The notes beneath the pieces are model-generated. The model was given only the letters and a program-made list of their open reading frames with translations, had not been told where the DNA came from and did no database searches. From UHGV virus genome UHGV-0066004: a stretch of DNA of 64,000 bases; one strand, written 5' to 3'. The DNA comes from a virus. Positions within the stretch are counted from its first letter, which is position 1; every line of letters starts with the position of its first letter. Position numbers and translations under genes: made by a program. Below, in pieces: positions 47,896 to 64,000 of the stretch.

Positions 47896-47896
47896 T

Positions 47897-48258: not shown

Positions 48259-48259
48259 G

Positions 48260-48965: not shown

Positions 48966-48970
48966 CTTTA

Positions 48971-49276: not shown

Positions 49277-49347
49277 TTTAGGATTTAGTGGTAAAGCTCT
49301 TTATCTGGGGCTTACTTTATCGAACTATAAGCCCCTTGTAAAGTACT
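49262..49347 (-). repeat. conserved upstream cassette, family 2
   Basis: sequence repeat. Confidence 0.7.
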
Positions 49348-49731: not shown

Positions 49732-49820
49732 TTTTGAATCTCCTAGTTTAAGGGTTAATTTGGTAAAGCTCTTTATCTGGGGCTTACTTTATCGAACTAT
49801 AAGCCCCTTGTAAAGTACTT
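49732..49820 (-). repeat. conserved upstream cassette, family 2
   Basis: sequence repeat. Confidence 0.7.
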
Positions 49821-49821
49821 T

Positions 49822-50043
49822 TTATTTATCGTAGTAGTAAATTGCTGTCTGTCTCGTAAATTTTTTAGTATTTCTTGTAAGGTAGCAATTAGAGTTTATA
49901 GCTGTTTCTACATAGTTGCAATAGTCAGCTTCTGATATTCTGGACCATACGCCACAGATTTGCATGTAAAAACGTTTTGCCTTTGTGTTAACGTTAGTTG
50001 TAACCATCAATTCGCGACTGTAAAGCATTATTTCGCGCTCCAT
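49822..50043 (-). CDS. hypothetical small protein
   Basis: 73-aa ORF. Confidence 0.45.
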   Translation of the reverse strand: MEREIMLYSRELMVTTNVNTKAKRFYMQICGVWSRISEADYCNYVETAINSNCYLTRNTKKFTRQTAIYYYDK

Positions 50044-50216
50044 TTCTCAAAGAGTTCAGCAGGGAAACGTTCGCTATACCCTTTTAAGGAAAAAGTATTA
50101 TCTTTGTGGATAGCTTCCACCTGATAAACCTTATAAGAGCGTATAGTTAGCATTTTGTAAGAGTATTCGTGCTTAATGTTAACCTCATCGCCAACTTTAA
50201 TTTTTCTTGATGCCAT
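50028..50216 (-). CDS. hypothetical small protein
   Basis: 62-aa ORF. Confidence 0.45.
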   Translation of the reverse strand: MASRKIKVGDEVNIKHEYSYKMLTIRSYKVYQVEAIHKDNTFSLKGYSERFPAELFEKWSAK

Positions 50217-50285
50217 TTTTGAATCTCCAGTTTAGGATTTTATTTAGTGGGGAAGGTCATTCCCTCCCCGTTGATGTAAATATTA
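50217..50285 (-). repeat. conserved upstream cassette, family 1
   Basis: sequence repeat. Confidence 0.7.
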
Positions 50286-50469
50286 GATAACCACGTTCAA
50301 AGAGTCAATAAAAATTTTAAAAATATTTTTGGCAAAACTGTAATGAAACGGGTGCGCACGACTACCACAAAACAGAACGCAAATCAAGAATTATTTTTCA
50401 ATCCGCTACAAATTTTTCTCTTGACTTTTGGGGAGAGGAAGAGGGGGAGAGGGGTTGGGCTGGCTGTCT

Positions 50470-50665
50470 ATAAAAACCTACCTGCACAATTCTAAAATGA
50501 TTTTTCTTGCCCGACCTGAGCGGGGTCTGCACGTTTTGAAAATGAAAAAGCTCTTTGGAGATTACCTGCACAGTTTGAAAATGAATTTTCTCTTTGGAGT
50601 TCAAAATTCTCTCTACAGATTTCTCTACAGAACTCTACCTGCACAATTCTAAAATGAAAAAGCCC
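50470..50665. repeat. four direct repeats of CCTGCACA(A/G)TT(C/T)(T/G)AAAATGA in a non-coding gap
   Basis: copies near 50476, 50526, 50562 and 50636; no credible ORF. Confidence 0.6.
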
Positions 50666-50730
50666 TCCTTACCTGAAAAATTTACCAGATAAGAAAGGCT
50701 TAGGCTATTGTGAATATACTACAGAGTTTC

Positions 50731-51516
50731 TTAGTTCTTTGCGTCTAAGAAGGTAACTTCTGGTGAAGAGAAGATTGCCTCGATATCCTCATCAGTTCTT
50801 GCATAGATATAAGCTTCTGCATCACTACCAAATGTTACAGCAATTCTGTGATTGCTCTTTGACAGGTGGGTAACTAGAGCGTTACTTAGAGACATCTTTT
50901 CAACCGGAGGGTTACTTTGATGTATCTTACCTTTTCTTCGTCTGAAGAGGGTAACTGCGTTATCTGTGAACACTGCTACACCTGCAAAGTATTCTGGTTC
51001 ACAGTAGTTCTTCCAACCTGAGCGTAACTTGTGGTACATCTCGCCTTCATAGACATACAGATAAACATCTACACTCTTCATCACCTGATTGATGATAACT
51101 GTGATGGCTTGAGGGTCAAGTCCACCGATACCTGCACCAATCATAGGTAAACCAACTTTCTTCAACTGATTAACTTCACAGTATCTGTTAAGCTGTTTCA
51201 AAGATGACTCTAAAGCACTGTATCGGGCATCTTTACCAGTCTTAAGCTGAGTGTAAAGGTTAGCTATACGACCTTGTTTTAAGCGTGCTACAGAGAAATT
51301 ACCTAGTAAATTCTCACAGGGTTTGTGACCTATACCACCTGCATAGAGATAAACTTCTGTATCGGTCTCATATGCTTTTGGGTAAAGTTTAGAAATCTTG
51401 TCAGCGATACCTGCGCCCATTAGGTTCATGCAGTTACAACCATGACCAATGATGTCAAACTTACCTTTATCAAATGCAGCAAAGATATCACCATTGATGA
51501 TTTTTACAATACCCAT
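50731..51516 (-). CDS. macrodomain protein (TARG1/DarG-like ADP-ribose hydrolase fold) with C-terminal extension
   Basis: 261 aa; GDIF ... GHGCNCMNLMGAGIA and VGLPMIGAGIGG match the TARG1/DarG macrodomain pattern. Confidence 0.7.
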   Translation of the reverse strand: MGIVKIINGDIFAAFDKGKFDIIGHGCNCMNLMGAGIADKISKLYPKAYETDTEVYLYAGGIGHKPCENLLGNFSVARLKQGRIANLYTQLKTGKDARYSALESSLKQLNRYCEVNQLKKVGLPMIGAGIGGLDPQAITVIINQVMKSVDVYLYVYEGEMYHKLRSGWKNYCEPEYFAGVAVFTDNAVTLFRRRKGKIHQSNPPVEKMSLSNALVTHLSKSNHRIAVTFGSDAEAYIYARTDEDIEAIFSSPEVTFLDAKN

Positions 51517-51717
51517 TTAGCATCTCTCCCAAGATTCTTTATCTTCTGAAGGTTTTACACGTTGCCCCTCATGGTCTACCCAGATGCACCCACAACCTTC
51601 ACAGATTACTGGCATTGCATAACCAGCTTTAAAATCATCTTCAGTGATAAGACCTTTTAAGTCACCTGTATCACGTCCGAACATTTCGATAGAACAGTCT
51701 TTACAGAAGTCAGCCAT
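51517..51717 (-). CDS. hypothetical Cys-rich small protein
   Basis: track ORF 51517..51795 trimmed to internal Met (MADFCKDCS) giving ATGA overlap; CxxC ... CEGCGC. Confidence 0.45.
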   Translation of the reverse strand: MADFCKDCSIEMFGRDTGDLKGLITEDDFKAGYAMPVICEGCGCIWVDHEGQRVKPSEDKESWERC

Positions 51718-51937
51718 GAATAATTGCCTCTTGAATGATGATACCTTTACCACAACGACTTTTAAAGTCTTCCAATGGTTCAGAGATGAAGCCACGTAAG
51801 CAGTCAGTGAATACTAAGTTCTTCCTGTAAGCTATCACATCATTTGCTGTAAATGGGATGACCTCATTTCGTCCAATGAATACTGCTGACCTTATAAGTT
51901 TTCGTGTCTTTTTATCTCTGGCTAGTATTACTTTCAT
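51710..51937 (-). CDS. hypothetical protein
   Basis: 75-aa ORF. Confidence 0.45.
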   Translation of the reverse strand: MKVILARDKKTRKLIRSAVFIGRNEVIPFTANDVIAYRKNLVFTDCLRGFISEPLEDFKSRCGKGIIIQEAIIHG

Positions 51938-52238
51938 AGTTTACCTTCTCAGTTAGTTCATATAAATCAACATGCTCAATACTGTCAATGTTGATATCAA
52001 TCTTTTTGAAACGCTCCATCACTTCGTTATCAGTCATCCATATCAGACACCAATGATTCTGGATGGATTCTTCAAGAAGGTCAACACAATCTTTAAAGGT
52101 TTTTGTATCACTTCTTGTTCCTACTACTGCGATTGTTCCATATAGCCACTTACCATTGCCATAAGATACTTGTGCTACGCCAACTTCTTTACCTTTCTCA
52201 TAGTAAACGGCTACAAAGTCTCTTCCATTAATCTGCAT
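51912..52238 (-). CDS. hypothetical protein
   Basis: 108-aa ORF. Confidence 0.5.
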   Translation of the reverse strand: MQINGRDFVAVYYEKGKEVGVAQVSYGNGKWLYGTIAVVGTRSDTKTFKDCVDLLEESIQNHWCLIWMTDNEVMERFKKIDINIDSIEHVDLYELTEKVNYESNTSQR

Positions 52239-52240
52239 AG

Positions 52241-52510
52241 TTACTTCCTCGTTTTAAGAACTGCTAAGATTTCTTTAGAATCTGGTAAGAACCATGTGTA
52301 GTGATTCTCTTTGATTTCTGGATGAGTGTCAACCTTTATTTTGCACTCTTTACCAACATGTTTAAGCTGTGCTGTGACACCTTGCATAAAGATATGGCAC
52401 ATCACATTATCCATAATGGTTGGTGAGAAATCAATTCGCATATAAGTCTCTTTTGGTCGTGGTAACAGTAAGTATCCTTCTACGTAAAAAGTATCTTGAT
52501 TCTCTGTCAT
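52241..52510 (-). CDS. hypothetical protein
   Basis: 89-aa ORF. Confidence 0.5.
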   Translation of the reverse strand: MTENQDTFYVEGYLLLPRPKETYMRIDFSPTIMDNVMCHIFMQGVTAQLKHVGKECKIKVDTHPEIKENHYTWFLPDSKEILAVLKTRK

Positions 52511-52776
52511 TGCTGCTTATTCCCTAATAAAATCATGTCAATAAGGTTGTTAGCTTTGATTGTGCACTGGTAAAAGCCGTCACGATAGAACTCAAGGGCT
52601 GCTGCTACATCGCTGCCTGTGTTGCCTTTGATGATATACCGTGATTCTTCTTGGGTGTACTTATCACCCTCACTTACTTGGGAGTTTTTGAATGTACTGC
52701 TCACTTTGTTCGTTGAACACCCTGACATAGTTATCAGTAACACAAACATTATAAAACTCTGGCTTAGTTTTTTCAT
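52507..52776 (-). CDS. putative lipoprotein (o-spanin-like candidate)
   Basis: 89 aa; signal peptide with lipobox-like MSGC; overlaps 3' end of upstream ORF out of frame. Confidence 0.4.
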   Translation of the reverse strand: MKKLSQSFIMFVLLITMSGCSTNKVSSTFKNSQVSEGDKYTQEESRYIIKGNTGSDVAAALEFYRDGFYQCTIKANNLIDMILLGNKQQ

Positions 52777-53017
52777 ATGTTAGTACCTCTTTTGTATGCT
52801 TATTCTTAGCAAGCACATCTTTCAAATCATTTTTGTAATTGGTGCTGAGTGTGGCTAAACCTTCCTGATAAGCATCTTTAGCAACACTTATTAGTTTCTC
52901 ATTATTTAGCTCAGTTTCAGCAACTTGATAGTCTCTGTAAGAGTATCCTCCCCAGACACCTGCACCAACTAAGAAAACAATTATGAAAGTAGCTTGACAG
53001 AACTCTTTAAATGTCAT
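52670..53017 (-). CDS. putative membrane-anchored coiled-coil protein (i-spanin-like candidate)
   Basis: 115 aa; N-terminal TM segment then helical region; overlapped by lipoprotein ORF. Confidence 0.4.
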   Translation of the reverse strand: MTFKEFCQATFIIVFLVGAGVWGGYSYRDYQVAETELNNEKLISVAKDAYQEGLATLSTNYKNDLKDVLAKNKHTKEVLTYEKTKPEFYNVCVTDNYVRVFNEQSEQYIQKLPSK

Positions 53018-53029
53018 TTAACAATCTCC

Positions 53030-53060
53030 TAAAATGAAAAAGGCTCCCGAAGGAGCCTGT
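53030..53060 (-). terminator. rho-independent terminator
   Basis: aggctcc-cgaa-ggagcct hairpin with U-run on minus strand. Confidence 0.6.
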
Positions 53061-53069
53061 ATCTTAACC

Positions 53070-53534
53070 TTAACCGAGGACTTTAGCAAGGATATTCGCA
53101 GCCATCGAAGAAGCTTTTGCAGCAGCAACTACGCCAGCTTTGACAGTGCTATCCTTAATAGCAGATACCGTTGCAGCATCAGTAAAGAGATAAGTGATTG
53201 TTTTAGAACCACTTGTAAAGGAAAGCATAAGAGTAGTTTCCAGATTGAAAGAGCGATACGGAGCACCTTCTTTAACGATACCTTCAGCACCTAACTCTGA
53301 AGCCTTGCCCATATCATAGATAGTCATCAGGTTTTCTTTGTGTGCTGTGGTTGAGCCAGAACCTTTTACGTGTTTCTTAACATTCAAAAGAGCACGATAC
53401 TCTCGGATGTTACCGTCTGCTTTTACGTTGACAGCACGGAAAATTTTACCCTCAAAGTTGCTCTTGATAATGTTACGAACTACTTCAGATTTGTTTGCCG
53501 TAACGTCCAGTGCTACCGTAATGATATTGTTCAT
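53070..53534 (-). CDS. hypothetical protein
   Basis: 154-aa ORF followed by terminator. Confidence 0.55.
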   Translation of the reverse strand: MNNIITVALDVTANKSEVVRNIIKSNFEGKIFRAVNVKADGNIREYRALLNVKKHVKGSGSTTAHKENLMTIYDMGKASELGAEGIVKEGAPYRSFNLETTLMLSFTSGSKTITYLFTDAATVSAIKDSTVKAGVVAAAKASSMAANILAKVLG

Positions 53535-53544
53535 AAGTTTTCTC

Positions 53545-54240
53545 TCAATGTTTAACTAACATGGTTTTGATGTGTGGAAGTATTCTGTTCACCTTCTGCA
53601 CATTCTTCTCTGTGTCTTCTATAAAACATACTATATTAAAGTAAGGCAGAATACAAGACTGAATCATCCTCACTTTCAAACTTTCTGCACTTATAGAGTT
53701 AGTCCCAAAACCACGCATAAAAAGCATGTAGTCATGCTCTGTGTTATGCCTTAAAAACATCTCAGTAGGTATTCTCTGAGATTCACCTCTCGCTGTCAAG
53801 AGTCCAATGGCAGCATGATTAGCAATTGCATCAATAATACTAAAGACATACGTTGGTTTTGCTCTTACAGAGTCAAGAAGATTAGTGTACTGTGAGAATG
53901 ACCCATCAGTCAATTCCGTTGAGCAATCTTCGTGATTAAAATTTGTAAGAACACCATCAATATCTGCTAAGATGAGGTTACCTTTTTCTACAAGGTCTTT
54001 ATTGACTATGACTAAGCTATCACGACTTACACCTATAGTTTGTCCAGTCTCTTTATCTACAACATTCACAATTGGCTCTGATGTGTGGAACTCTTCGAGT
54101 GAACATACAACTTCTCTTGCAGTGTCTTCAAAATCCCTACACTGTTCTGGAGTCCATACACAGGAATCAAGACCTAACTCATGAGGATGTAAGTCGTAAG
54201 CATGACACAGTACTTCATCAGACTTTTTTAATTTTTTCAT
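53545..54240 (-). CDS. putative HAD-family hydrolase/phosphatase
   Basis: 231 aa; LILADIDGVLTNF matches HAD motif I (DxDG). Confidence 0.5.
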   Translation of the reverse strand: MKKLKKSDEVLCHAYDLHPHELGLDSCVWTPEQCRDFEDTAREVVCSLEEFHTSEPIVNVVDKETGQTIGVSRDSLVIVNKDLVEKGNLILADIDGVLTNFNHEDCSTELTDGSFSQYTNLLDSVRAKPTYVFSIIDAIANHAAIGLLTARGESQRIPTEMFLRHNTEHDYMLFMRGFGTNSISAESLKVRMIQSCILPYFNIVCFIEDTEKNVQKVNRILPHIKTMLVKH

Positions 54241-54766
54241 GGTTTACCTTAGAAATGTTTATTGCAAATTCACATTGAGCAATGACTTTCATGTTGTTAT
54301 AGACATCTTGAGAATATTTCTTAGCTTTAGGGATTTTGTACGAATACCCAGCATTATATGATGCTAAAACTTTTTGTAAAGTCTTCTTTGACTTTGGCTG
54401 ACCATGCACCTTTGTCCAAAACTCAAGCTCTTTGTGAGTTTCCTTCGCAGCATAGTCAAAGTCTTTTAAGAGTTTCTTTTTAGCCACATTAGGACTAATT
54501 TTGTTACGCTTTACAACAGTCTTCAAGTGATTCTGGAAGATACCATAATCATGTGTCTTTTTATTCTCTACCTTCAGACCTAACTCTGACTCTTGTAAGG
54601 CTATAGCAGCTAGAGTGATACCCCAACCTTTACCCATGTTATTCTCACCATACTGGTAAGCTTTTAACATGTTTACTTTTTGGCTAATTGATAGCTCTGG
54701 GCAGTCAACTGCATAAGATAAGTGTGCTGTAAACATTAAGCACAAACCTAGAATCAATTTCTTCAT
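54218..54766 (-). CDS. putative secreted lytic transglycosylase-like protein
   Basis: 182 aa; signal peptide; ALQESELG ... DYGIFQ resembles SLT catalytic motif. Confidence 0.5.
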   Translation of the reverse strand: MKKLILGLCLMFTAHLSYAVDCPELSISQKVNMLKAYQYGENNMGKGWGITLAAIALQESELGLKVENKKTHDYGIFQNHLKTVVKRNKISPNVAKKKLLKDFDYAAKETHKELEFWTKVHGQPKSKKTLQKVLASYNAGYSYKIPKAKKYSQDVYNNMKVIAQCEFAINISKVNHEKIKKV

Positions 54767-54866
54767 TGGTTCTCCTGTTTAGTTTATCGTGACAACAATT
54801 ATACAGCACTCTGCACAAAATACAAATAAAAAAGGCCGCCGAAGCAGCCTTTTAAGAAATTACTTA

Positions 54867-55976
54867 TTAGATTTCACGTTTACGTTGGGAGATTAGTTCA
54901 CCAGCAGTGCCAACGATGACATGCAAAGCTTCAGTCTTGCCATCCCATTCTTTCAGCACTTTACGTTGATTATCAACGATTGCTGCAACTTCATAACGAG
55001 ACGAACGCATCTTCATATCGTTGTAATCAGTTGGAACAGATACAACATCTCGTGGATGGACACGAACCTTCAGGATTGTATCACCTGAGAAGCAACGAAC
55101 ATAATCCCAAGCACCAACGTGAAGACCCTGAGAGCAAGTCACGTTACGGTTATTATCAACCATCCAACGTGGCATTTCTACAATGTTACCCAAATCATTA
55201 GGTACTCTGTAGGTGTGGGAGTCAACCAGCTTGCCTTCATGAGTAGAGACTTTCTTCCAACCAATGATGTAGCCTTCTTCATCAATTTCAACATCAAGGT
55301 GAGATACGAATCCCCAAAGTTGTTCTACAGAGTCTTTAGATGGGTTTTCCATCAGTTTTTCGAAGAACATCACAAGGCGTTCAAAACCCTTATCTCCAGT
55401 CTTCATCATGTGAAGAATACGGTCAACCAGAGTAGAACGCATCTCAACAGCACCGTAGAATAACTTGTCACCTTTGATGGTGATAGCACCCTGAGTGAAG
55501 TTTTCGATAGACTTACGAATGTTCATCAGTTCGAAAGCTTTCTTATACTCACCGGATACAACAGCCATCACGATTTCTTTGTAGTTCGGATGGGTAGATT
55601 CAACGATTTCAGAATCTGCACCGAAAGTCATGATAACAGAGTCGCCAGTAATCATGTACTCAATCTGGTTGCCATTCTGCATAGCTTCATGCAGTTTATT
55701 TACCGGAGCTTTCTGTACAGGCTCTTTAACAACCTTTTCAACTGGTTTGTCAGCTTTCTTTTTAACTGATTTAGCAACTTGCTTCAAAGTCTTCGTAGCT
55801 GGTTTAGAAGCTACCTTTTTCTTACCTTTTAAGGTTGCTTCATGACGCTCTACAGCACGACCAACTGAACGGGTTGAAGTATTGAACTTCTGTGCAATAG
55901 CTGTTTTAGTCAGCTTACCTTCTTTAACCAGTTCGTAAATTTCTGCGTCAATCTGTGCTTTAGTTTTAGTAGTCAT
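54867..55976 (-). CDS. rIIB: rIIB-like protein
   Basis: 369 aa directly downstream of rIIA-like gene, same strand (T4-type synteny). Confidence 0.55.
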   Translation of the reverse strand: MTTKTKAQIDAEIYELVKEGKLTKTAIAQKFNTSTRSVGRAVERHEATLKGKKKVASKPATKTLKQVAKSVKKKADKPVEKVVKEPVQKAPVNKLHEAMQNGNQIEYMITGDSVIMTFGADSEIVESTHPNYKEIVMAVVSGEYKKAFELMNIRKSIENFTQGAITIKGDKLFYGAVEMRSTLVDRILHMMKTGDKGFERLVMFFEKLMENPSKDSVEQLWGFVSHLDVEIDEEGYIIGWKKVSTHEGKLVDSHTYRVPNDLGNIVEMPRWMVDNNRNVTCSQGLHVGAWDYVRCFSGDTILKVRVHPRDVVSVPTDYNDMKMRSSRYEVAAIVDNQRKVLKEWDGKTEALHVIVGTAGELISQRKREI

Positions 55977-56055
55977 CTTATTACTCTCTCTTGTTAGTTA
56001 ATAAATCATTTTGTAAGGCTATTCTAAGGGGCTTCGAAGCCCCTTGTCAAACACT

Positions 56056-58422
56056 TTAATCGTAAATTGTAGTTCCTTCTGGAACACACTTCACATCAAA
56101 ACCTAAGAACTTACTCACTTCGATGGGTGACACTTTATTCCAATCTAAATGAGAAAGCAAGAAGTTTTCTTGTTTTCTTTTTGAAAGATAGTTTGTCAGT
56201 TTGATAACCATGCGGTCACCCGCTTTCTTAATCTTTTTGTACAGTTTTGTATCATTGTCAAGGCATGACTTCAAATCCTGAAGAACACTGATAGTGTAAG
56301 TGTATGCAAACGGTGCAGCCACATACTGAATCTTACCAAACATTGCCTCAACAGCATTCTCATTACCTTCTAAGAAGATGGTTTTGTTTGTATCTCGTGA
56401 ATAGCAATACCCGCGAGAAGTCTTCTTGTTATTAAACGTAAAGTTTCTGGCAATAATCCAACTACTTGTAAGGTCAAGGACACCATTCATATAGATACGT
56501 GTCATATACCTGTTATGATTAATCCAGTGAACATCAGTTAAGCTGTCATTCAATAGCTTCTCATCTACTTCAATCCAGTCTTCTGGTATCTTTTTCCAAT
56601 TTGCTTTTCGGAAAACATAGACTGTTTTTCCTATAACATTAGCAATTGTTTTAGCTACATCTTCTGGGGATGAGCAAAAACATTCACCATCAACTGTGTC
56701 GCCTACTGCCTTGATATAAAGCTGGGGTTCTTCAATTGTATCTAGGTCTTCTGACACCTCTGTGTATGAAGCTTTAGTTTCTGATGGAACAGCTTTCCAG
56801 AGTTTTACAACACCCCTCACAGCTTCTTTACGCTGATAATGGTGTTCCTTATCAGACATCTTCACAATCTTTAACAAACTTTTATCAAGCTTGTGTAGAT
56901 TGATTAAATCATCTAACTCTTTTTCAGTCGAGAATACAAACACAATACCATTGTATCTGTGGAACAGGCTTGACTCGTTAGCGTAGTCTCGACATGCACC
57001 ACGCAGAATCTGATTGCGGCCTACAGTCTTCTCAGTGCCATTTTTATTACGACGGTCATTAATCACGAACAAAAACTGTTCAATTTGGCTTTTACGCATT
57101 GCACCAAAGATATTGAACATACTTGCCTCTTGAGTGTAGGAAAGTGCTGTTGCACGAATCTTACTCTCTAAAGAGTTGAACTTGACATAAGCAACTGGAT
57201 TATAAAGATAATCCAGTTTAGGGATATTGTTCCCGTTCCTATCAACCTTGATATTACCTTTACCGTCACGTTCATAAATGACTGAGCCGTCTTCTGCGTA
57301 GATAATCCCACGACGAATGTTTAGTAATTCTTCTTCCAGAGAATCAAGCTTAATGCCTCCCCACTCTAGCTTTGGACACACAGCATTAAACATCTCTCGT
57401 GAGTTCAAACGTAACTCAGCATAAGCCTGTGCAGCATCCATGAGTGTAGGTTGGTTGTTAACTTTCTTGATAACATCCTTTGTAATGGCTTCAGTTATCT
57501 TTTTAGTAGCCTCAATGATAACATTTTTTGTCGTGTCATTCATCTGCAATGCTTCACGAGAAGCTGCAATAGCCACTGAACCAATAGGCATGTAGATGTT
57601 TACAAGGTCTACGCTCCTACGGAAAAACTCTGGCAAGACTTTGAAGAAATCATCACCAAGTAATGCTTCCATGTTCACTGGGTAGGCAATATTACCCATC
57701 ACCACATTAAACTCTGTCCTGTTGCCACTAGAACGCCAGCTTTGCTTATGAATCATAGCATCATAAACACCCTCTTCACGGGCAATGACATTCATATCTG
57801 CTAATACATCATCATATACAATGTTACTTTCTGGTTTTACAGCAAAGTATGAGTATACGTGACCAGCCTCTTCAAAGAACTTTGAAATACGATGGTCAGC
57901 AACTGCCACACGTACAGCTAAACCATTGGGTTCATTTGTTGGGTTGGTAGTAAGCTTAGTTACTTGAGGGATACCATTCTCAAGGTAAACAGAGTACTTA
58001 TTAACAACACCATCAACATAGCTAGATACTGTGAATGACTGAGCAATTGCAAATGGGGATTTTGAGCCGATACCCATTGCACCAATGTAATCATTGGAGT
58101 CATTCTTCGTAGAAGCCCCATAGTTCAGATACAAACTCATTACTTTGTCATGGGTTAAACCAGTTCCAAAGTCACGGACTTCAAAGTAAGGCTCAAATCG
58201 AGTAGGTAAATGCACATGGAATGGGATGTTCTCTTTTCCAGCTTCTTTTTGAGCATCTACTGCGTTACATGACAGTTCACGAATCACTGCCCTTTCTTTG
58301 AATGTGTATACACCTGAACTCAAAAGGCTGAACATTTCAGGTGTCATTGTAATCTGTGCTTGAGATGTTTCCAAAGAAGTTGAACTCTTAATCACTTCTG
58401 CGTGGTCGTTTACCATGCGCAT
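56056..58422 (-). CDS. rIIA: rIIA-like protein
   Basis: 788 aa; N-terminus matches remembered T4 rIIA ATPase-like region (RAVIRELSCNAVDA, NDYIGAMGIGSKSPF). Confidence 0.75.
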   Translation of the reverse strand: MRMVNDHAEVIKSSTSLETSQAQITMTPEMFSLLSSGVYTFKERAVIRELSCNAVDAQKEAGKENIPFHVHLPTRFEPYFEVRDFGTGLTHDKVMSLYLNYGASTKNDSNDYIGAMGIGSKSPFAIAQSFTVSSYVDGVVNKYSVYLENGIPQVTKLTTNPTNEPNGLAVRVAVADHRISKFFEEAGHVYSYFAVKPESNIVYDDVLADMNVIAREEGVYDAMIHKQSWRSSGNRTEFNVVMGNIAYPVNMEALLGDDFFKVLPEFFRRSVDLVNIYMPIGSVAIAASREALQMNDTTKNVIIEATKKITEAITKDVIKKVNNQPTLMDAAQAYAELRLNSREMFNAVCPKLEWGGIKLDSLEEELLNIRRGIIYAEDGSVIYERDGKGNIKVDRNGNNIPKLDYLYNPVAYVKFNSLESKIRATALSYTQEASMFNIFGAMRKSQIEQFLFVINDRRNKNGTEKTVGRNQILRGACRDYANESSLFHRYNGIVFVFSTEKELDDLINLHKLDKSLLKIVKMSDKEHHYQRKEAVRGVVKLWKAVPSETKASYTEVSEDLDTIEEPQLYIKAVGDTVDGECFCSSPEDVAKTIANVIGKTVYVFRKANWKKIPEDWIEVDEKLLNDSLTDVHWINHNRYMTRIYMNGVLDLTSSWIIARNFTFNNKKTSRGYCYSRDTNKTIFLEGNENAVEAMFGKIQYVAAPFAYTYTISVLQDLKSCLDNDTKLYKKIKKAGDRMVIKLTNYLSKRKQENFLLSHLDWNKVSPIEVSKFLGFDVKCVPEGTTIYD

Positions 58423-58608
58423 AATACTTTCCTCTTAGTTTACTGTTAAATTACTTATTAAACATTTTACCAGAACCACCACAAATAGGGCAACAACCTG
58501 CTCTTGTGTACCCTTCCCCGTTGCAGTAATCACACTTCTTGTGCTCTGCATAGTACTTGCAAAGAAGGTAAACAAATACTGCTACACTACCAAGTGACAG
58601 TAAAATTT

Positions 58609-58944
58609 CTATCCAATATGCTTGCATGACTCACCTCTCATATTCTTGTAAAGGATAAAGCTTCTGTCATGGACGATACTTGTAGACACTGCAAAGTTAC
58701 TTTCAAGCATCTGTTTGTTTGGATTGTAGAAGCTTTCTTTAAACTCGTCAAGTGCAAATTGGTGATGTTGTGGAAGACCTTTTACACAGATTTTTATTGT
58801 GATTGCTGCTGCAACCTTACCCGTCAGTTCTTCTTTAGCTGCTACTAAAATTTTGTTAAGGAATTTATGACCATTTTCAGGTTTCTTAATGTTTTCCCAA
58901 CGTTCTTCCAAGACAACGTTGATGTTCATCTCTTTGATTTTCAT
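58609..58944 (-). CDS. hypothetical protein
   Basis: 111-aa ORF. Confidence 0.5.
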   Translation of the reverse strand: MKIKEMNINVVLEERWENIKKPENGHKFLNKILVAAKEELTGKVAAAITIKICVKGLPQHHQFALDEFKESFYNPNKQMLESNFAVSTSIVHDRSFILYKNMRGESCKHIG

Positions 58945-58957
58945 AGTTTTCTCCAGA

Positions 58958-58985
58958 AATTAAAAAGGCTCCCGTAGGAGCCTCT
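58958..58985 (-). terminator. rho-independent terminator
   Basis: aggctcc-cgta-ggagcct hairpin with U-run on minus strand, after NadV-like gene. Confidence 0.6.
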
Positions 58986-58997
58986 TATCATATACTT

Positions 58998-60779
58998 TTA
59001 AAGCTGCTTGTCAATATTATTTCGAATATCACCAAGAGTTGTGTAACCGAACTGCTCAGAGTCACTAAAGACTAAACGTAAAGCACAGGCTGGGTGGTCA
59101 AGTACATCTGCAAAACTCTGGAATCCATATCCATCTACAGCTTTCAGCTTATCACCGTCCCACATAGGTGCTACACCACCAAAGGCAGACTTCTTAACAC
59201 CACTATCTGTTTTAGGGTCTTTTGCAAGCATAATCTCTTTACCACCAATGCTTGCAAGAGTTGCTTTGACAGCAAATGCAAAGGTGTCACGAGTCATGTA
59301 CTGGTAAGTGTAGGAGCCTACACCAAACACTACGTTAGAGCTTGCAAAACCCATTCCATACAGACGCTTCAGGATTTCGTTTGCACGTTCCAGCGTGATA
59401 GAATCACCATAGATAAGGCCGATATGCTCATCCAGTACCTTAAACCCTTTAGAGTTAATAGTTCCCCCAAAGATGTTGTACAGTGTCTTAATAGCTCCAT
59501 CAATCTCAGCTACAGGACGTGTTACAACGTTTGCAGAACCAACCATATAAGCATCCTTTAACATCACCGTATCAGCAGCTTCAAAGTCTTCTCTGTCAAC
59601 AACCATTTCGTAGCCTTCTGACAGTAGCCATCCAGCAATACCATAGCTGATGTTTTCAAGCTTCATGTTCAGAATAGCATTCAACATTGTGTCACTGGCT
59701 TCCAGCTTGCTTAGGTGCTTATAATAAGCCTTCTTAGCACACTCTAAGTGGATTGCTTTATAACCTGTGACAATATGTACAGGGTCTCCAGAGTCAGGAC
59801 GAATTACCAGTTTGCCATCACGTTCCATAATTTCTTTACGGAGTGCTGGTAAGATTTCTGACACAGTTCTCCAGAAGTTATAAGTATCTGAAACAATACT
59901 TGCAATACCAGTTGGGTAAGTTTCTGTTAAGAAACGACGGAAGGTTTGTAACTCACCTTTAAAGCGTCTTTCTTCTTCAATCAATTCATTACCACCTTCC
60001 CAAGCAATGTTTGCACACATTACAGAGTGCTCAGTGGCTGGTACAGAACTACCAATATCAGAGATTGGGTAAGACTGACCATAGATTCGTTTAGCCGTGT
60101 ATACAGCAGGGAAGCTATCAGTTCCTTTAAAGCTGGTTAAGTGACCTACAGCGTTAAATGCGTCATCAGTAAAGCCGGACATACCACGCATAGCAAAGTC
60201 ATGGCACTGATAAGGCAAATGTAAGTCGTTGTCACAAGTAAGGTCAGACCACTTCTTACAGATACGTTTGTAGTGCAATGCAATAGTCGCAATGGTACAA
60301 GCCTTCCAAATTTCAGCAGAGAAAGCATCTTCCAGATAACCTGCTACCCAATGGAAACCTGAAACAGTGTTCTGGAAGACAATCATTGGGACACGCATAG
60401 GAACAACTGTACCTTCTTCTACAGCGTATACTTCAACTGGTAGATAACCTAAGTCGTGAAGTGATTCCCAATGCTCTCGACCGATAGCATCTTTACCCAG
60501 AACACCATTCATGACTTCTAAGATTTCGTCAACTGCTTCTTTTTTATCACGTTCAAAGAAAGTGGCGTTCCAGTGGTCTATCAGGTAATCTTTAACGAAA
60601 CGTTGAATACCAAAAGCTACTACACCATCAATTGCTAAGGGGCTGTTAAACCATTTGTCACTACGTGGTGTCAGGTTGAACATCAAGTATTCTGTTGCAC
60701 TAGGGTACTGGTAAACATGACCAGATTTGTAAGCATCTGCGTTTAAACCTGCTGGTACTGCGTAAAGCGATTTAGTCAT
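58998..60779 (-). CDS. nadV: nicotinamide phosphoribosyltransferase-like enzyme (NadV/Nampt family)
   Basis: 593 aa; NadV-like N-terminus; adjacent to Prs-like gene. Confidence 0.75.
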   Translation of the reverse strand: MTKSLYAVPAGLNADAYKSGHVYQYPSATEYLMFNLTPRSDKWFNSPLAIDGVVAFGIQRFVKDYLIDHWNATFFERDKKEAVDEILEVMNGVLGKDAIGREHWESLHDLGYLPVEVYAVEEGTVVPMRVPMIVFQNTVSGFHWVAGYLEDAFSAEIWKACTIATIALHYKRICKKWSDLTCDNDLHLPYQCHDFAMRGMSGFTDDAFNAVGHLTSFKGTDSFPAVYTAKRIYGQSYPISDIGSSVPATEHSVMCANIAWEGGNELIEEERRFKGELQTFRRFLTETYPTGIASIVSDTYNFWRTVSEILPALRKEIMERDGKLVIRPDSGDPVHIVTGYKAIHLECAKKAYYKHLSKLEASDTMLNAILNMKLENISYGIAGWLLSEGYEMVVDREDFEAADTVMLKDAYMVGSANVVTRPVAEIDGAIKTLYNIFGGTINSKGFKVLDEHIGLIYGDSITLERANEILKRLYGMGFASSNVVFGVGSYTYQYMTRDTFAFAVKATLASIGGKEIMLAKDPKTDSGVKKSAFGGVAPMWDGDKLKAVDGYGFQSFADVLDHPACALRLVFSDSEQFGYTTLGDIRNNIDKQL

Positions 60780-60824
60780 CTTTTAATCTCTCTCAAAATG
60801 GGGCTTTCAAGCCCCTATAAAGTT

Positions 60825-61721
60825 TCAATCAATGGTTGCTACAGTAACTTGGGCGTAATGTGTTAAGCCACGGTCTTTAGCTTCACCTAAAGTGTTTGTA
60901 GTGTAGATATGGTCAATACCGTTGTCAAGTAAGTTTTCAACACCTTTAGAGAAAATACCATGAGTTACATAGAGTTCCACACGTTTTGCACCTGCTTCAC
61001 GTAGGTGTTTAGCTGCCTCTACGAAGGTTCGACCACCATCACAGATATCATCAAGAATCATGACAGTTTTATCGGTCAAATCAACATCGTCAAGGATTCG
61101 CATACCAGTGATTTCTCCAGTCTTAAGATTGCGCACCTTAGACATTGTGATATACGGTTTATCCACCTCTTTAGCGGTATCTTCAGTCTTCTTAGCTGCA
61201 CCTGCATCTGGGGCTACCAAGAAATCAATGCGTGGGTCACTTGCAAAGTGTACTGCCACATCTTTTTGCTTCATGCTTTGAAAGCACTTAAATAAGTTTT
61301 CTGCAACATTACTGTGAGGGTCAAGAGCACATACTGCATCAAAACCCATTGCATTAACTAGGTTGGCAAAGACTTTCAGTGCTGCTGCATCACCTTTGAA
61401 CATGTGGCGGTCATATCGAGCATTTGGTAAGAACCCGAAAACAACGGTTTTCATCGCTGATTTCTGGGGAACAAGACTGTCAACGGCATCCTTAGCCAAA
61501 GCTAATGCAAACAGTGTATCTTTGTCATATCCCTGCACAGTAAGTATAACATTGTCAATCTTACCAGCATTACGCTCAGTAAACTTAACAAAATCTTCAG
61601 AGAAGTTTCCACCAATTTCTCCAGATGGGAATTGAATGATATTAAATTTTTCTGTGTGGAAGAATTTCTCTTGTGCGGTGACGACGGCTTCAATAACAGT
61701 TTTCATAGTTTTCTCTCTCAA
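60825..61721 (-). CDS. prs: ribose-phosphate pyrophosphokinase-like enzyme (Prs family)
   Basis: 298 aa; PRPP-binding motif VMILDDICDGGRTF. Confidence 0.75.
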   Translation of the reverse strand: MREKTMKTVIEAVVTAQEKFFHTEKFNIIQFPSGEIGGNFSEDFVKFTERNAGKIDNVILTVQGYDKDTLFALALAKDAVDSLVPQKSAMKTVVFGFLPNARYDRHMFKGDAAALKVFANLVNAMGFDAVCALDPHSNVAENLFKCFQSMKQKDVAVHFASDPRIDFLVAPDAGAAKKTEDTAKEVDKPYITMSKVRNLKTGEITGMRILDDVDLTDKTVMILDDICDGGRTFVEAAKHLREAGAKRVELYVTHGIFSKGVENLLDNGIDHIYTTNTLGEAKDRGLTHYAQVTVATID

Positions 61722-61996
61722 TCAAAAGTTACGTTTGTTACTGCCATTGCAGATTTGCATTTTGCAGGGTCTACAACGTGATAAAGTACACTACAGTTAC
61801 CTGTGCTGTCTGGTACAGGCTTTACCCATTGCTGCTTTATAGTTGGCTCTCCTAAGTCTTTGTAAGAACCATCTGTAAAGTTGTTTACCATCTCAAGTGC
61901 AATTGGTTCTGGAACATGACCACGTATCATGTACATTTCACAACCATTACCGCCTTCACTGACTAATGGTAAAATCTCCCACTTCTCTTTAGCCAT
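61718..61996 (-). CDS. hypothetical protein
   Basis: 92-aa ORF start-coupled to Prs-like gene. Confidence 0.5.
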   Translation of the reverse strand: MAKEKWEILPLVSEGGNGCEMYMIRGHVPEPIALEMVNNFTDGSYKDLGEPTIKQQWVKPVPDSTGNCSVLYHVVDPAKCKSAMAVTNVTFD

Positions 61997-62504
61997 TGTA
62001 AGTTGCCCTATAAACTGTCTCGAACTTCAACAGGAGAGATATTGCCAAATCTGTATAGTTGTTGTCAAGCACATCTGGCATATTATTTTTGATATATTTC
62101 TCTTGCTCTTCATAGGTCATCTTAGGTGTGCTTAGAAGATTACCCCCTTGCTTCTGGTTATCAAGTTTAGTTTGGATAAACCAGTTTGCACAGTGATGCT
62201 CACCACCCTTTGTAACAGGCTTGTGGTGGCCTAATGTAAATGTTTGCTTACCTGTATACCTGCAAAGATTGTTCAGTGTTGCAATAGTGTTCTTCACAAC
62301 ACACCATTCATACAGGTTATCTATTGTGTAGTGTGGGTAATAACGGACAAGTGCTCTTTCACGGAAGTTATCACGATTCCAAAGAACCATGTGATTCGAG
62401 TTAGAAGGGTCGTATTGGTGGGAGTCAATGAACTCTTGACGTTCCTCAAAGCTGAGTCTTAGAACTGACATTGCAGCCGAACGTTTCAGGTTTGACAGAT
62501 ACAT
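61989..62504 (-). CDS. HNH endonuclease
   Basis: 171 aa; LGHHKPVTKGGEHHCANW His/Asn-rich nuclease motif. Confidence 0.65.
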   Translation of the reverse strand: MYLSNLKRSAAMSVLRLSFEERQEFIDSHQYDPSNSNHMVLWNRDNFRERALVRYYPHYTIDNLYEWCVVKNTIATLNNLCRYTGKQTFTLGHHKPVTKGGEHHCANWFIQTKLDNQKQGGNLLSTPKMTYEEQEKYIKNNMPDVLDNNYTDLAISLLLKFETVYRATYNG

Positions 62505-62555
62505 TTTATCTCCAAAATAAAAAGGGAACCTTTACAGTCCCCTTATAGTATCTGT

Positions 62556-62876
62556 TTACTGAGCTACTTTCAAGATGCTTGTGAATGAGATTTCACTCTC
62601 ATCCATAAACTCTTTTGCTTCTCCAGTAACTTTCACAAAGTTATCTAGGCAGATAATCTTCTTATCTTTCTTACTGTAGGTTAGCTTAACCTTTTCAATA
62701 TCTTTCTTAGAGCTTTCCTCTTCATTGAAGAGTTTTACAGCCTCTTTGAATGGGAGGTATGAGCCATCATCATCACTAATAAAACCTGTACCACAATAGT
62801 AGAAGTTATATTCTTTAGCCATAAACTGGCACAGTACGAAAATCTGTAATTTGCGAGTGTTATAAACTTTGCTCAT
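62556..62876 (-). CDS. hypothetical protein
   Basis: 106-aa ORF. Confidence 0.5.
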   Translation of the reverse strand: MSKVYNTRKLQIFVLCQFMAKEYNFYYCGTGFISDDDGSYLPFKEAVKLFNEEESSKKDIEKVKLTYSKKDKKIICLDNFVKVTGEAKEFMDESEISFTSILKVAQ

Positions 62877-62878
62877 GA

Positions 62879-63136
62879 TTATTTAGCCTTCTTATTACGT
62901 TTACGGTTACGAGCTTTCTTAGCTGCTCGTTTAATAGCTGCTGCACCAGACGGACGGTGGGCTTGTTTCTTACCACCTTTGCCACGGCCTACATAGATAC
63001 TTTTCATAATCTCATTAGCCAGCTTCTCATCCATCTTGAAGTTCTGCATAAGATGAGTCACATCAACTCCAGTGAGCATACCTAATGAAGTTAGTGCTGC
63101 TTTTACTTTTGATTTAAAACTATTCCAGATTCCCAT
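62879..63136 (-). CDS. hypothetical basic protein
   Basis: 85 aa; C-terminus RAAKKARNRKRNKKAK. Confidence 0.5.
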   Translation of the reverse strand: MGIWNSFKSKVKAALTSLGMLTGVDVTHLMQNFKMDEKLANEIMKSIYVGRGKGGKKQAHRPSGAAAIKRAAKKARNRKRNKKAK

Positions 63137-63260
63137 TTCGTATCTCTCTCAATCTTTTCACAAAATGCTTTAAGTTCTTCTTCAGTGACGCCAACTGTTA
63201 AGTTTGTTCTGTAGAAGATTGTAAAGTGGCCTTTACCGATAACCTACTTTACGACGAGGC

Positions 63261-63746
63261 TTACTCGGCTCTCCACTGGCAATCACCTTGCCACCCATAC
63301 TCTTTTCTCCAGAGGTTTTGGTTATCAGAACCACGATACGGTTTAACTGTTGGTTTAGATGAATCATACTTACCATCAATCACCACGTCAACATATTTCA
63401 TCACATCTAGGTGAATTTTTTCGTGTAGTTGAAAACCTGTCCAGAGCCATATAGACTTCTCTGGATAAACAGTTTTAATACGTTTGCATATGTTGGTAAC
63501 CTCTTGAATATTTCTATCATCCAAAGGTTCTCCACCAAGTATTGACAAACCACTGACAGCATTATCACCCATTAACTTAATGATGCCGTAAAGGTTTGCA
63601 TAAGTAAACTCTTTACCAGCATTAAACTTCCAAGACTCCCTGTTAAAGCAGCCTTCACAGTGATGCTTACAACCAGCTACGAAGAGGCTTACACGAACCC
63701 CTTCACCATTAGCTGTGTCAAATGGTCTAATCTCCATGTAATTCAT
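63261..63746 (-). CDS. nrdG: anaerobic ribonucleotide reductase activating protein
   Basis: 161 aa; radical-SAM cluster motif GCKHHCEGC; strong resemblance to remembered T4 NrdG. Confidence 0.85.
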   Translation of the reverse strand: MNYMEIRPFDTANGEGVRVSLFVAGCKHHCEGCFNRESWKFNAGKEFTYANLYGIIKLMGDNAVSGLSILGGEPLDDRNIQEVTNICKRIKTVYPEKSIWLWTGFQLHEKIHLDVMKYVDVVIDGKYDSSKPTVKPYRGSDNQNLWRKEYGWQGDCQWRAE

Positions 63747-63805
63747 CTAGTTACCTCACCAATAAATATAAATGTTCTTTAAACCTTTTCTTCGAATTGT
63801 TTTAC

Positions 63806-64000
63806 TCATTCAAACACCACCTGACAAGGAACCTGTTTAGTAATAAATTCTTCACAGTGCTCTTTAATGAAGTTTTGTAATGGTACACAATCTTGTGCGC
63901 AAGTCATTAGCATAACGTACTCTGGGTTCATGATGTTTTCAAGGGTGTAGAAGACAACATCATCAGACAGTTCGTGACCATCTTCCTCAGACCAAGTTCC
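63806..64000 (-). CDS. partial CDS (C-terminal end; 5' end beyond window), Cys-rich
   Basis: minus frame open from window edge to TGA at 63806-63808; not in supplied track; lacks glycyl-radical motif so probably not NrdD. Confidence 0.35.
   Translation of the reverse strand, partial: GTWSEEDGHELSDDVVFYTLENIMNPEYVMLMTCAQDCVPLQNFIKEHCEEFITKQVPCQVVFE

Follow-up and report, generated by a model that had tools for sequence, protein, structure and literature searches.

Two adjacent genes of a Felix O1-like coliphage very probably form the NAD+ reconstitution pathway NARP1

We analysed a 64,000-nucleotide stretch of the virus genome UHGV-0066004 (hereafter, the window), in which two neighbouring minus-strand genes of a Felix O1-like coliphage very probably constitute NAD+ reconstitution pathway 1 (NARP1), a two-gene system. 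The phage belongs to Felixounavirus and is nearly identical to Bas63 (JohannRWettstein). Its Prs-like protein agrees with Bas63 gp79 (bas63_0079) at 290 of 293 residues (99%), and its Nampt-like protein with gp80 (bas63_0080) at 582 of 593 (98%). The operon is already known, as NARP1 was found through deletion of Bas63 gp79-80 (bioRxiv 10.1101/2024.02.11.579819). The two genes were read as follows:

58998..60779, minus strand: namat (nicotinamide ADP-ribose transferase, Nampt-like), 593 aa, ATG start
60825..61706, minus strand: adps (ADP-ribose pyrophosphate synthetase, Prs-like), 293 aa from ATG 61706
60825..61721, minus strand: alternative reading of the adps ORF from TTG 61721, 298 aa

Both genes run in the same direction with a 45-bp spacer between them, and the order, adps then namat, is the NARP1 arrangement of Bas63, SPbetaL1 and ICP1. 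The initial annotation had described a 593-aa and a 298-aa protein side by side; both reading frames are present, but 293 aa is the likelier length of the Prs-like protein. The start at ATG 61706 appears more likely than TTG 61721 because it is the start annotated in Bas63, sits 12 nt beyond the stop codon of the preceding ORF and has a Shine-Dalgarno-like run, GAGAGAG, in front of it. We found the operon conserved across 259 Felix O1-like genomes. Neither gene is disrupted, and comparison with Bas63 shows purifying selection on both: namat differs at 49 codons synonymously and at 11 non-synonymously, adps at 20 and 3, and none of the 14 substitutions in the pair falls on a catalytic or ligand-contacting residue.

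This near-identity, together with conserved signatures in both proteins, suggests that the window's own proteins act as the Bas63 NARP1 enzymes do. In the proposed pathway, a host NADase defence (SIR2-HerA/Nezha, DSR1/2, type I Thoeris, SPARSA, Kongming or similar) would cleave NAD+ into ADP-ribose and nicotinamide. Adps would then move the beta-gamma pyrophosphate of ATP to the 1'' hydroxyl of the terminal ribose of ADP-ribose, yielding ADPR-pyrophosphate (ADPR-PP) and AMP, and Namat would swap the pyrophosphate of this product for nicotinamide, giving NAD+ directly without an NMN intermediate. The phage would thus retain NAD+ sufficient for replication.

The experimental basis for this scheme comes from Bas63 and from more distant homologues. 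NARP1 counters SIR2-HerA, DSR2 and Thoeris, and deletion of gp79-80 from Bas63 lowered plaque numbers on SIR2-HerA about 20-fold; NAD+ depletion was milder with the operon present, ADPR-PP (m/z 720.010) was seen only when wild-type phage met a defence system, and rescue from SIR2-HerA was independent of host pncC and nadR (bioRxiv 10.1101/2024.02.11.579819). The chemistry was reconstituted in vitro using the SpbetaL1, ICP1, DyoEdafos and Gary homologues, since the Bas63 protein 'did not purify well' (bioRxiv 10.1101/2024.02.11.579819), and the substrate specificity of the Felix O1-type enzymes is for that reason extrapolated from homologues that are 30–47% identical. The roles proposed in the initial annotation, a Prs-like ADP-ribose pyrophosphate synthetase and a NadV-like transferase, are borne out by the identity to gp79 and gp80. 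Its caveat that sequence could not separate this pair from PRPP/NMN salvage is now outdated, owing to the near-identity to a tested operon, the Namat clamp (PMC12774641) and the Adps structural signature (PMC13586617).

Namat matches Pfam NAPRTase (7e-35) and NAMPT_N as well as PHROG 448 (2.7e-200). Its best sequence match in the PDB is SpbetaL1 Namat (9W5W/9W5X, 1e-128), and these two entries also head the Foldseek matches of its AF2 model (pLDDT 94; target-normalised TM 0.95), with HdNadV and human NAMPT ranking below them. Two elements that shape the adenine clamp were located in the protein:

59286..59318, minus strand: selectivity-clamp helix (SCH) motif GSYTYQYMTRD, residues 488-498
60642..60665, minus strand: selectivity-clamp loop (SCL) region RSDKWFNS, residues 39-46

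The clamp is dispensable for the PRPP reaction and required for the ADPR-PP reaction, and the SCH consensus, GS-X-phi-X-phi-X-phi-TRD with aromatic X, is specific to Namat and absent from Nampt (PMC12774641). The window motif fits this consensus with aromatics at the adenine-stacking positions, and all 120 of the top 120 Namat homologues carry the motif. In the SCL, K42-W43 aligns to SpbetaL1 R40-V41, in a stretch where the window does not differ from Bas63; a Lys at the SCL position leaves stacking to the residue that follows it, 'e.g. Bas63 Namat' (PMC12774641), and W43 is thus likely to be the adenine-stacking residue. Of 20 residues that contact NAD+ in the SpbetaL1 crystal structure, 16 are identical, the differences being R40 to K42 (followed by W43), S190 to A196, A362 to S460 and F392 to Y490. 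The core residues Y17, F195, R198, D221, H251, R327 and D329, among them the nicotinamide-stacking Phe/Tyr, the catalytic His251 and Arg327 and the Arg/Asp of RPDSGD, correspond to SpbetaL1 Y15, F189, R192, D215, H245, R306 and D308.

The Prs-like protein matches Pfam Pribosyltran and Pribosyl_synth and PHROG 619 (5e-99), and we weighed Adps against Prs by pairwise scores, NCBIfam cut-offs and signature residues. It scored 120 bits against ICP1 Adps, 95 bits against SpbetaL1 Adps and 67 bits against E. coli Prs, the one sequence (28% identical) that represented housekeeping Prs in the pairwise comparison. In the published tree, Bas63 Adps falls within the Adps clade, 97% of whose genes adjoin a Namat gene. 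The catalytic Lys190 of the beta-hairpin (codon 61137..61139) is conserved (ICP1 K185, SpbetaL1 K162, Gary K192), as are the acceptor residues R97, H131, D167, D219, D220 and D223 (ICP1 R87, H121, D161, D212, D213 and D216), the adenine-stacking F26 (ICP1 F18') and the lid residue F228 (ICP1 F221). ICP1 F92, which contacts the ADPR adenine, and F223, of the ATP lid, are replaced by M102 and E230 in the window; neither Phe is present in SpbetaL1 Adps, where a gap and a Lys take their places, which suggests that they may not be family-defining. The PRPP-binding motif reported in the initial annotation was recovered from the translation, in the PP loop:

61023..61064, minus strand: Adps PP-loop region VMILDDICDGGRTF, translation checked, aligning to ICP1 Adps D212-F221

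The role of this loop in Adps is to bind the pyrophosphate donor that comes from ATP (PMC13586617). It reads C-D-G-G-R-T in the window, C-D-G-A-A-S in ICP1 (C215-S220) and S-S-F-G-G-T in SpbetaL1, and its contacts are mostly made by the backbone. In the alignment, the C-terminal filament and regulatory module of Prs (alpha11-alpha12) has no counterpart in the window protein (the structural signature is taken from PMC13586617), which stops about 22 residues short of the E. coli Prs C terminus, as do ICP1 and SpbetaL1 Adps.

The pair might instead serve canonical salvage, with the Prs-like protein making PRPP from ribose-5-phosphate, the NadV-like protein making NMN and host NadR/PncC finishing NAD+, a NARP2-like logic without a phage NMNAT; we consider this highly improbable. 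The Pfam families named above would suit it, GenBank relatives of the pair are all annotated as Prs and NadV, and two NCBIfam models pass their cut-offs, the 'nicotinate phosphoribosyltransferase' model PRK09198 for Namat (466 versus 405) and the broad subfamily TIGR01251, alone among the Prs models, for the Prs-like protein (138 versus 113 bits). Against this, every Prs equivalog cut-off is missed (PRK01259, 101 versus 297, with E. coli Prs at 533; the best narrow model, PRK00934, 113 versus 296 bits) and the regulatory C terminus of Prs is absent. SpbetaL1 Namat, if given no ADPR-PP, does convert PRPP to NMN in vitro (PMC12774641), and the window Namat may retain a secondary PRPP-dependent activity; yet Namat offered both donors made NAD+ only, and SpbetaL1 Adps, given ribose-5-phosphate or ADPR with ATP, was concluded not to be a Prs (bioRxiv 10.1101/2024.02.11.579819). 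The preference for ADPR-PP over PRPP is known for the SpbetaL1 homologue only (PMC12774641; bioRxiv 10.1101/2024.02.11.579819), and the adenine clamp that the ADPR-PP reaction needs is conserved in the window Namat. Furthermore, Bas63 rescue needed neither pncC nor nadR, ADPR-PP was detected in infected cells, and NMNAT, Nudix, NadR and PnuC genes are not annotated in the Bas63 genome.

The pair was also compared with known enzymes and pathways. E. coli Prs, human NAMPT and HdNadV (9KE8) share the folds and the chemistry, namely ATP pyrophosphoryl transfer and displacement of pyrophosphate by nicotinamide. However, E. coli Prs differs from the window protein in its alpha11-alpha12 module and in its scores with the equivalog models, and Nampt lacks the GS-aromatic-x-aromatic...TRD clamp, HdNadV having GAQTYQRNTRD instead. 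NARP2 (KVP40: Nampt and a bifunctional NMNAT/Nudix enzyme) serves the same purpose through PRPP and an NMN intermediate without Adps, and NARP3 (Bas30: a PnuC-like transporter and a NadR-like enzyme; PMC13464706) does so by importing nicotinamide riboside, whereas the window pair has Adps and the Namat clamp. NARP2 was considered and rejected, with Adps adjoining Namat and the flanking ORFs lacking NMNAT or Nudix domains (Pfam); the annotation of the full Bas63 genome likewise lists no NARP2 or NARP3 partner (NMNAT/Nudix, PnuC/NadR). The SPbetaL1 and ICP1 systems (PMC12774641, PMC13586617) share with the window the two-enzyme pathway, gene order, catalytic core, clamp and Adps catalytic Lys. 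They differ in sequence (47% identity for Namat and about 30% for Adps by multiple alignment), in the K42/W43 of the window in place of R40, in M102/E230 of Adps, and in two Namat insertions of about 88 and 15 residues found in the window relative to SpbetaL1.

Bas63 NARP1 is the nearer relative, with the same genus, gene order, spacer hairpin and terminator and a nucleotide identity of 96.8%. The flanks are shared as well, with rIIA and rIIB downstream and the phrog_4726 and phrog_3500 ORFs and nrdG upstream; in contrast to the window, Bas63 carries a 114-aa ORF (bas63_0081) after namat. Among deposited genomes compared over 24 kb of the window, none exceeded 82% coverage and 93% identity, and the lack of a single close match indicates that the window is a different, mosaic isolate.

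The larger of the two Namat insertions forms a subdomain of its own:

59499..59762, minus strand: inserted alpha/beta subdomain of about 88 residues in Namat, residues 340-427

This subdomain, absent from SpbetaL1 Namat and from Nampt, is predicted to fold confidently and is conserved in the Namat of the Felix O1-like lineage. It begins about a dozen residues past the RPDSGD active-site strand, and a search for relatives of its fold detected none. The insertion site varies in length across Namat homologues, whose aligned stretch spans 22 to 102 residues there, and such a length-variable hotspot suggests tolerated insertions rather than a new active-site element. The subdomain might conceivably have a regulatory or partner-binding role specific to the Felix O1-like lineage.

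That the Felix O1 lineage enzymes might use a different ADPR-derived substrate, or be regulated differently, from those of SpbetaL1 and ICP1 seems to us barely credible. The folded (predicted), lineage-conserved insertion near the RPDSGD strand, the replacement of two donor- or acceptor-contacting aromatics of ICP1 Adps (M102, E230) and the restriction of the in vitro data to homologues from other lineages lean that way; conversely, ADPR-PP formed and NAD+ was restored in vivo on infection with Bas63, which shows that the canonical intermediates arise, none of the clamp or catalytic residues has been lost, and the insertion sits in a hotspot of variable length. A nucleotide-supply module without a defence role, in which the Prs-like protein would raise PRPP for phage nucleotide synthesis alongside the ribonucleotide reductase genes, would fit the early-gene block that houses the operon near nrdG, nrdD and nrdAB, in a genome that encodes thymidylate synthase and dihydrofolate reductase at other loci, but is next to untenable given the Bas63 deletion and infection results (bioRxiv 10.1101/2024.02.11.579819), the appearance of ADPR-PP only when a defence system is present and the Namat neighbour of 97% of Adps-clade genes, which it does not explain.

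Two hairpins bear on how the NARP1 operon may be transcribed:

60800..60815, minus strand: small GC hairpin GGGGCUUGAAAGCCCC followed by AUUUUG, in the 45-nt adps-namat spacer
58963..58986, minus strand: intrinsic-terminator-like hairpin and T-run directly 3' of namat

The downstream hairpin has a 10-bp stem with 5 GC pairs followed by TTTTTAATTT, a fold of -16.6 kcal/mol (z = -3.3) and a sequence identical in Bas63, and it is likely to mark the 3' end of the transcription unit. The spacer folds at -12.6 kcal/mol (z = -2.6), and its hairpin, also identical in Bas63, fails the T-run criterion of the terminator scan; it could possibly act as a weak attenuator or an RNA-stabilising element. Judging from the hairpins, adps and namat would be co-transcribed, possibly with two small upstream ORFs. 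A promoter scan of the region returned 14 sites against 11.2 expected from the shuffled background, and as this is not above background we name no promoter.

Finally, a candidate accessory gene was found outside the operon:

50731..51516, minus strand: Adpp-like Macro-domain protein, 261 aa, encoded by a candidate accessory gene of the pathway

In NARP1-AP, exemplified by Vibrio phage Gary, Adps and Namat are joined by Adpp, a Macro-domain ADPR-1''-P phosphatase (bioRxiv 10.64898/2026.01.28.702374). The six ORFs flanking the window operon contained no Macro/Adpp or RyR/RyDEP accessory genes by Pfam, and the only Macro gene found lies about 7.5 kb and about 14 ORFs downstream of namat. Its product comprises an N-terminal Macro domain homologous to Adpp (Pfam Macro PF01661, 30.5 bits, cut-off 22) and a C-terminal extension of about 100 aa; it is 27% identical to Gary Adpp over the whole Adpp length (E 2e-13) and 35% identical to the NARP1-linked Macro protein of phage PN09 (E 6e-18). 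His25 matches the essential H24 of Gary Adpp, the residue changed (H24A) to inactivate that enzyme (bioRxiv 10.64898/2026.01.28.702374). The window thus resembles NARP1-AP in encoding an Adpp-family Macro protein with the essential His, but differs in that the gene stands outside the operon and encodes the extra C-terminal region. It is conceivable, though rather unlikely, that Felix O1-like phages run a dispersed NARP1-AP with this protein as an unlinked Adpp, which would supply Adps with ADP-ribose made from ADPR-1''-phosphate, the compound that aRES-type RES NADases produce. The gene is syntenic across Ounavirinae, at about 7.5-9 kb from the operon; the occurrence of the family in 2850 phage records, T4-like phages included, weakens any specific tie to NARP1. 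A literature search on the Felix O1 or Bas63 Macro protein returned nothing relevant, and neither this unlinked gene nor the inserted Namat subdomain is described in the NARP1 literature covered.

Taken together, the window brings no new biology, being one of about 260 Felix O1-like genomes with essentially the Bas63 operon. The two side observations, the Namat subdomain and the Macro gene, are modest and could refine the picture of how aRES resistance is spread among therapeutic coliphages. A dispersed NARP1-AP, if real, would give Felix O1-like phages resistance to aRES, and would have been overlooked by the published survey, which spanned two genes either side of NARP1 and whose table lists no Escherichia phage (bioRxiv 10.64898/2026.01.28.702374). 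NARP1 itself is an important recent discovery, in which two previously unknown reactions rebuild NAD+ against a whole class of NAD+-depleting defences. The labels 'ribose-phosphate pyrophosphokinase' and 'nicotinamide/nicotinate phosphoribosyltransferase' still given to these genes by public records and by current Pfam and NCBIfam models are functionally misleading, and the practical value of the present analysis lies in the annotation of these genes.

The adjacent Prs-like and Nampt-like genes are the characterised, already known NARP1 (NAD+ reconstitution pathway 1) operon, carried by a close relative of its discovery phage. The initial annotation had proposed NAD+ reconstitution of this type, and near-identity to the Bas63 operon, the Namat clamp and the Adps signatures support that reading. 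Both open reading frames (ORFs) lie where it had placed them on the minus strand, at 58998..60779 (namat, 593 aa) and 60825..61721 (adps, 298 aa from a TTG), and its PRPP-binding motif VMILDDICDGGRTF was located at 61023..61064. The Prs-like ORF itself stands, but the ATG at 61706 (293 aa) is a likelier start than the proposed TTG, because this ATG is preceded by a GAGAGAG run, lies 12 nt past the stop of an upstream 92-aa ORF and is the annotated start in the closest curated genome. For the 593-aa protein, the Pfam matches were NAPRTase (7e-35) and NAMPT_N, and the PHROG match was 448 ('nicotinamide phosphoribosyl transferase', 2.7e-200); for the Prs-like protein they were Pribosyltran and Pribosyl_synth, with PHROG 619 ('ribose-phosphate pyrophosphokinase') at 5e-99.

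Features of the operon region and of the wider phage genome
27776..32922, minus strand: 26 clustered tRNA genes, as is typical for Felix O1-like phages
50731..51516, minus strand: Macro-domain protein, 261 aa (Pfam Macro 30.5 bits, cut-off 22), equivalent to bas63_0095 ('putative phosphatase')
58963..58986: terminator-like hairpin and T-run 3′ of namat (-16.6 kcal/mol, z = -3.3)
59286..59318: Namat helix motif GSYTYQYMTRD
59499..59762, minus strand: alpha/beta insert of ~88 residues in Namat (residues 340-427), confidently folded in the model
60800..60815, minus strand: small GC hairpin GGGGCUUGAAAGCCCC in the adps–namat spacer, with AUUUUG after it (spacer -12.6 kcal/mol, z = -2.6; hairpin identical in Bas63)
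61718..61996, minus strand: small ORF phrog_4726, 92 aa, equivalent to bas63_0078, directly upstream of adps and conserved in Bas63
61989..62504, minus strand: small ORF phrog_3500, 171 aa, weak HNH-endonuclease-like match, equivalent to bas63_0077 and conserved in Bas63
62522..62544: second terminator-like hairpin, upstream of the two small co-directional ORFs

Megablast of the two-gene region returned 259 phage records, nearly all from Felix O1-like phages (the genus Felixounavirus and related Ounavirinae) with Escherichia, Salmonella, Shigella or Citrobacter hosts; the top identity was 97.9%, and query coverage was at least 80% in 215 of them. Escherichia phage JohannRWettstein (BASEL phage Bas63) is among the near-identical relatives. 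The surroundings are Felix O1-like, with rIIA and rIIB downstream of the operon and nrdG upstream. Within the tRNA cluster, ARAGORN called tRNA-Ser(gct) at 27856..27948, and the 93-nt Bas63 counterpart (bas63_0160) is annotated as tRNA-Arg(AGA). Across the 24 kb at 40000..64000, no deposited phage genome exceeded 82% coverage at 93% identity, a ceiling that indicates a mosaic genome within the genus, not an isolate already described; single genes there reach 97–100% identity to differing Felixounavirus isolates.

The Adps and Namat proteins align without gaps to Bas63 gp79 (290/293 residues identical, 99%) and gp80 (582/593, 98%). Codon differences are mostly synonymous (20 synonymous and 3 non-synonymous in adps; 49 and 11 in namat), and together with the near-identity they mark the operon as the same as the founding example. 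None of the 11 Namat differences falls at the NAD+-contact, catalytic or clamp residues examined. Unlike the window (58945..58997), Bas63 carries a 114-aa ORF 3′ of namat (bas63_0081, 5603..5947 of the Bas63 comparison sequence L001), for which Pfam gave no match; in the window, a bas63_0082 homologue (58609..58944) lies directly beyond the namat terminator. The 45-nt gap between adps and namat holds a GAGAGAG ribosome-binding-like run and the spacer hairpin, which could set the Adps:Namat ratio by transcription attenuation or by stabilising the upstream mRNA. The two small ORFs between the hairpin at 62522..62544 and adps may share a transcript with NARP1. Promoter-like matches in the region did not exceed the shuffled background, so we can only infer the transcription boundaries.

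The discovery of NARP1 started from Bas63 genes 79–80: deletion of the operon gave ~20-fold fewer plaques on SIR2-HerA cells, NAD+ depletion was milder when the phage carried it, and rescue was independent of the NMN-using host enzymes PncC and NadR (bioRxiv 10.1101/2024.02.11.579819). A new metabolite, ADPR-pyrophosphate (ADPR-PP, m/z 720.010), appeared only with wild-type phage in defence-carrying cells (bioRxiv 10.1101/2024.02.11.579819). By orthology, the window proteins would perform both literature-established steps: Adps would move the ATP beta-gamma pyrophosphate onto the terminal ribose of ADP-ribose, yielding ADPR-PP and AMP, and Namat would use nicotinamide to displace the pyrophosphate of ADPR-PP, forming NAD+ directly. 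[quoted passage not shown] NARP1 was reported in 859 phage genomes (4.3%), with a Namat gene adjoining 97% of Adps-clade genes (bioRxiv 10.1101/2024.02.11.579819).

Crystal structures of SPbetaL1 Namat (9W5X, 9W5W) revealed a conserved core like that of Nampt, together with an adenine 'selectivity clamp' specific to Namat; the clamp comprises a helix motif, GS-X-phi-X-phi-X-phi-TRD (aromatic X), plus a variable loop providing a stacking residue (PMC12774641). When the window Namat was aligned with the protein from the fetched SPbetaL1 operon, 16 of 20 NAD+-contacting residues were identical, the other four being R40→K42 (then W43), S190→A196, A362→S460 and F392→Y490, and the catalytic H251 and R327 were kept. 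The lysine-then-aromatic clamp loop (K42/W43) has the arrangement described for Bas63 (PMC12774641). Entries 9W5W/9W5X were also the top PDB sequence match (1e-128) and the best Foldseek matches of the AlphaFold2 model (pLDDT 94, pTM 0.92; target-normalised TM 0.95), with HdNadV and mammalian NAMPT ranking lower. The insert at residues 340–427 occurs in Felix O1-like phages, and neither the crystallised SPbetaL1 Namat nor Nampt has it; searches of PDB and BFVD gave no fold relatives. Other Namat homologues carry insertions of widely differing length at this site, including an unrelated ~102-residue type in database matches P0092, P0098 and P0100. The clamp motif was present in all 120 top homologues from a large protein database, chromosomal enterobacterial proteins included. 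Multi-megabase chromosomal contigs of Klebsiella, Cronobacter, Phytobacter and Kosakonia encode proteins with the Namat motif (~496 aa) as well as Adps-like ones (~285 aa) (P0066, P0078, P0109, P0206, P0222 and related matches), one Klebsiella michiganensis cluster having 1229 members; by sequence, these matches are consistent with the reported bacterial NARP1.

Structures of ICP1 Adps showed a beta-hairpin bearing the catalytic Lys185, a set of conserved acceptor residues, a PP loop that is remodelled and binds the ATP donor, and loss of the alpha11–alpha12 module found at the C-terminus of Prs (PMC13586617). Alignment with ICP1 Adps, SPbetaL1 Adps and E. coli Prs showed that the window Adps has K190, R97, H131, D167, D219, D220, D223, F26 and F228 but not the C-terminal tail of Prs. 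Of the aromatic contacts in ICP1 Adps, two are changed (F92→M102, F223→E230); SPbetaL1 Adps likewise lacks both, so they may not define the family. BLASTP scores were 120 and 95 bits to the verified ICP1 and SPbetaL1 enzymes and 67 bits to E. coli Prs. Among NCBIfam models, the protein passed only the broad TIGR01251 and fell far under every Prs equivalog cut-off; on PRK01259, E. coli Prs reaches 533 bits.

A shift in specificity peculiar to the Felix O1-type enzymes keeps a small residual probability, as all enzymes assayed in vitro come from outside this type; against it, ADPR-PP and restored NAD+ were seen in Bas63 infections (bioRxiv 10.1101/2024.02.11.579819). A role in nucleotide supply is suggested by one observation, the proximity of nrd genes. 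The canonical route, in which Prs makes PRPP, NadV makes NMN and host enzymes complete NAD+, fits the database names but conflicts with the genetic and metabolomic results on Bas63 (bioRxiv 10.1101/2024.02.11.579819), the conserved adenine clamp, the Prs-equivalog failure and the Bas63 annotation, which lists no NMNAT, Nudix, NadR or PnuC gene.

We also considered an extension of NARP1. Adps cannot use ADPR-1''-phosphate, the product of NAD+ cleavage by the RES-domain defence proteins aRES, and ~15% of NARP1 operons include Adpp, a Macro phosphatase restoring ADP-ribose (NARP1-AP); inactivating any one of the three genes abolished anti-defence (bioRxiv 10.64898/2026.01.28.702374). The published survey covered two genes on each side of NARP1, and its table holds no Escherichia phage (bioRxiv 10.64898/2026.01.28.702374). 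A Pfam search of the ORFs flanking the operon found no Macro gene; the one at 50731..51516 lies ~7.5 kb away, beyond the survey range, and its product is 100% identical to the Felixounavirus LF82P5 protein. The alignment of its N-terminal 160 residues spans all of Gary Adpp, an enzyme with characterised biochemistry (27% identity, E 2e-13), and all of a Macro protein linked to NARP1 in phage PN09 (35%, E 6e-18), and His25 corresponds to Gary His24, the residue altered in the H24A mutant. The ~100-aa C-terminal region had no Pfam match and is seen at full length in Felix O1-like phages only. Pectobacterium phage Wc4-1, a distant member of the Ounavirinae, has the same order (adps, namat, rIIA, rIIB, then Macro ~9 kb off). 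The family occurs in 2850 phage records, T4-like phages included, which counts against a specific NARP1 link. Among solved structures, TARG1/OARD1 and coronavirus Mac1 matched best and Poa1p only weakly, and the nearest NCBIfam model, the DarG macrodomain, scored well under its cut-off. From these sequence comparisons, a functional dispersed NARP1-AP in this phage seems unlikely, and other roles, such as ADP-ribosylation reversal, are equally open.

Deposited relatives and Pfam/NCBIfam models (TIGR01251, NF006629) carry the names ribose-phosphate pyrophosphokinase and nicotinamide/nicotinate phosphoribosyltransferase, and none of the megablast records listed is annotated as Adps or Namat; the pass on TIGR01251 alone explains the former name on all deposited relatives. 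Misleading Prs- and NadV-type names thus propagate through public annotation. Beyond the known NARP1, the phage offers two modest, testable side leads, the Namat insert and the unlinked Macro gene.
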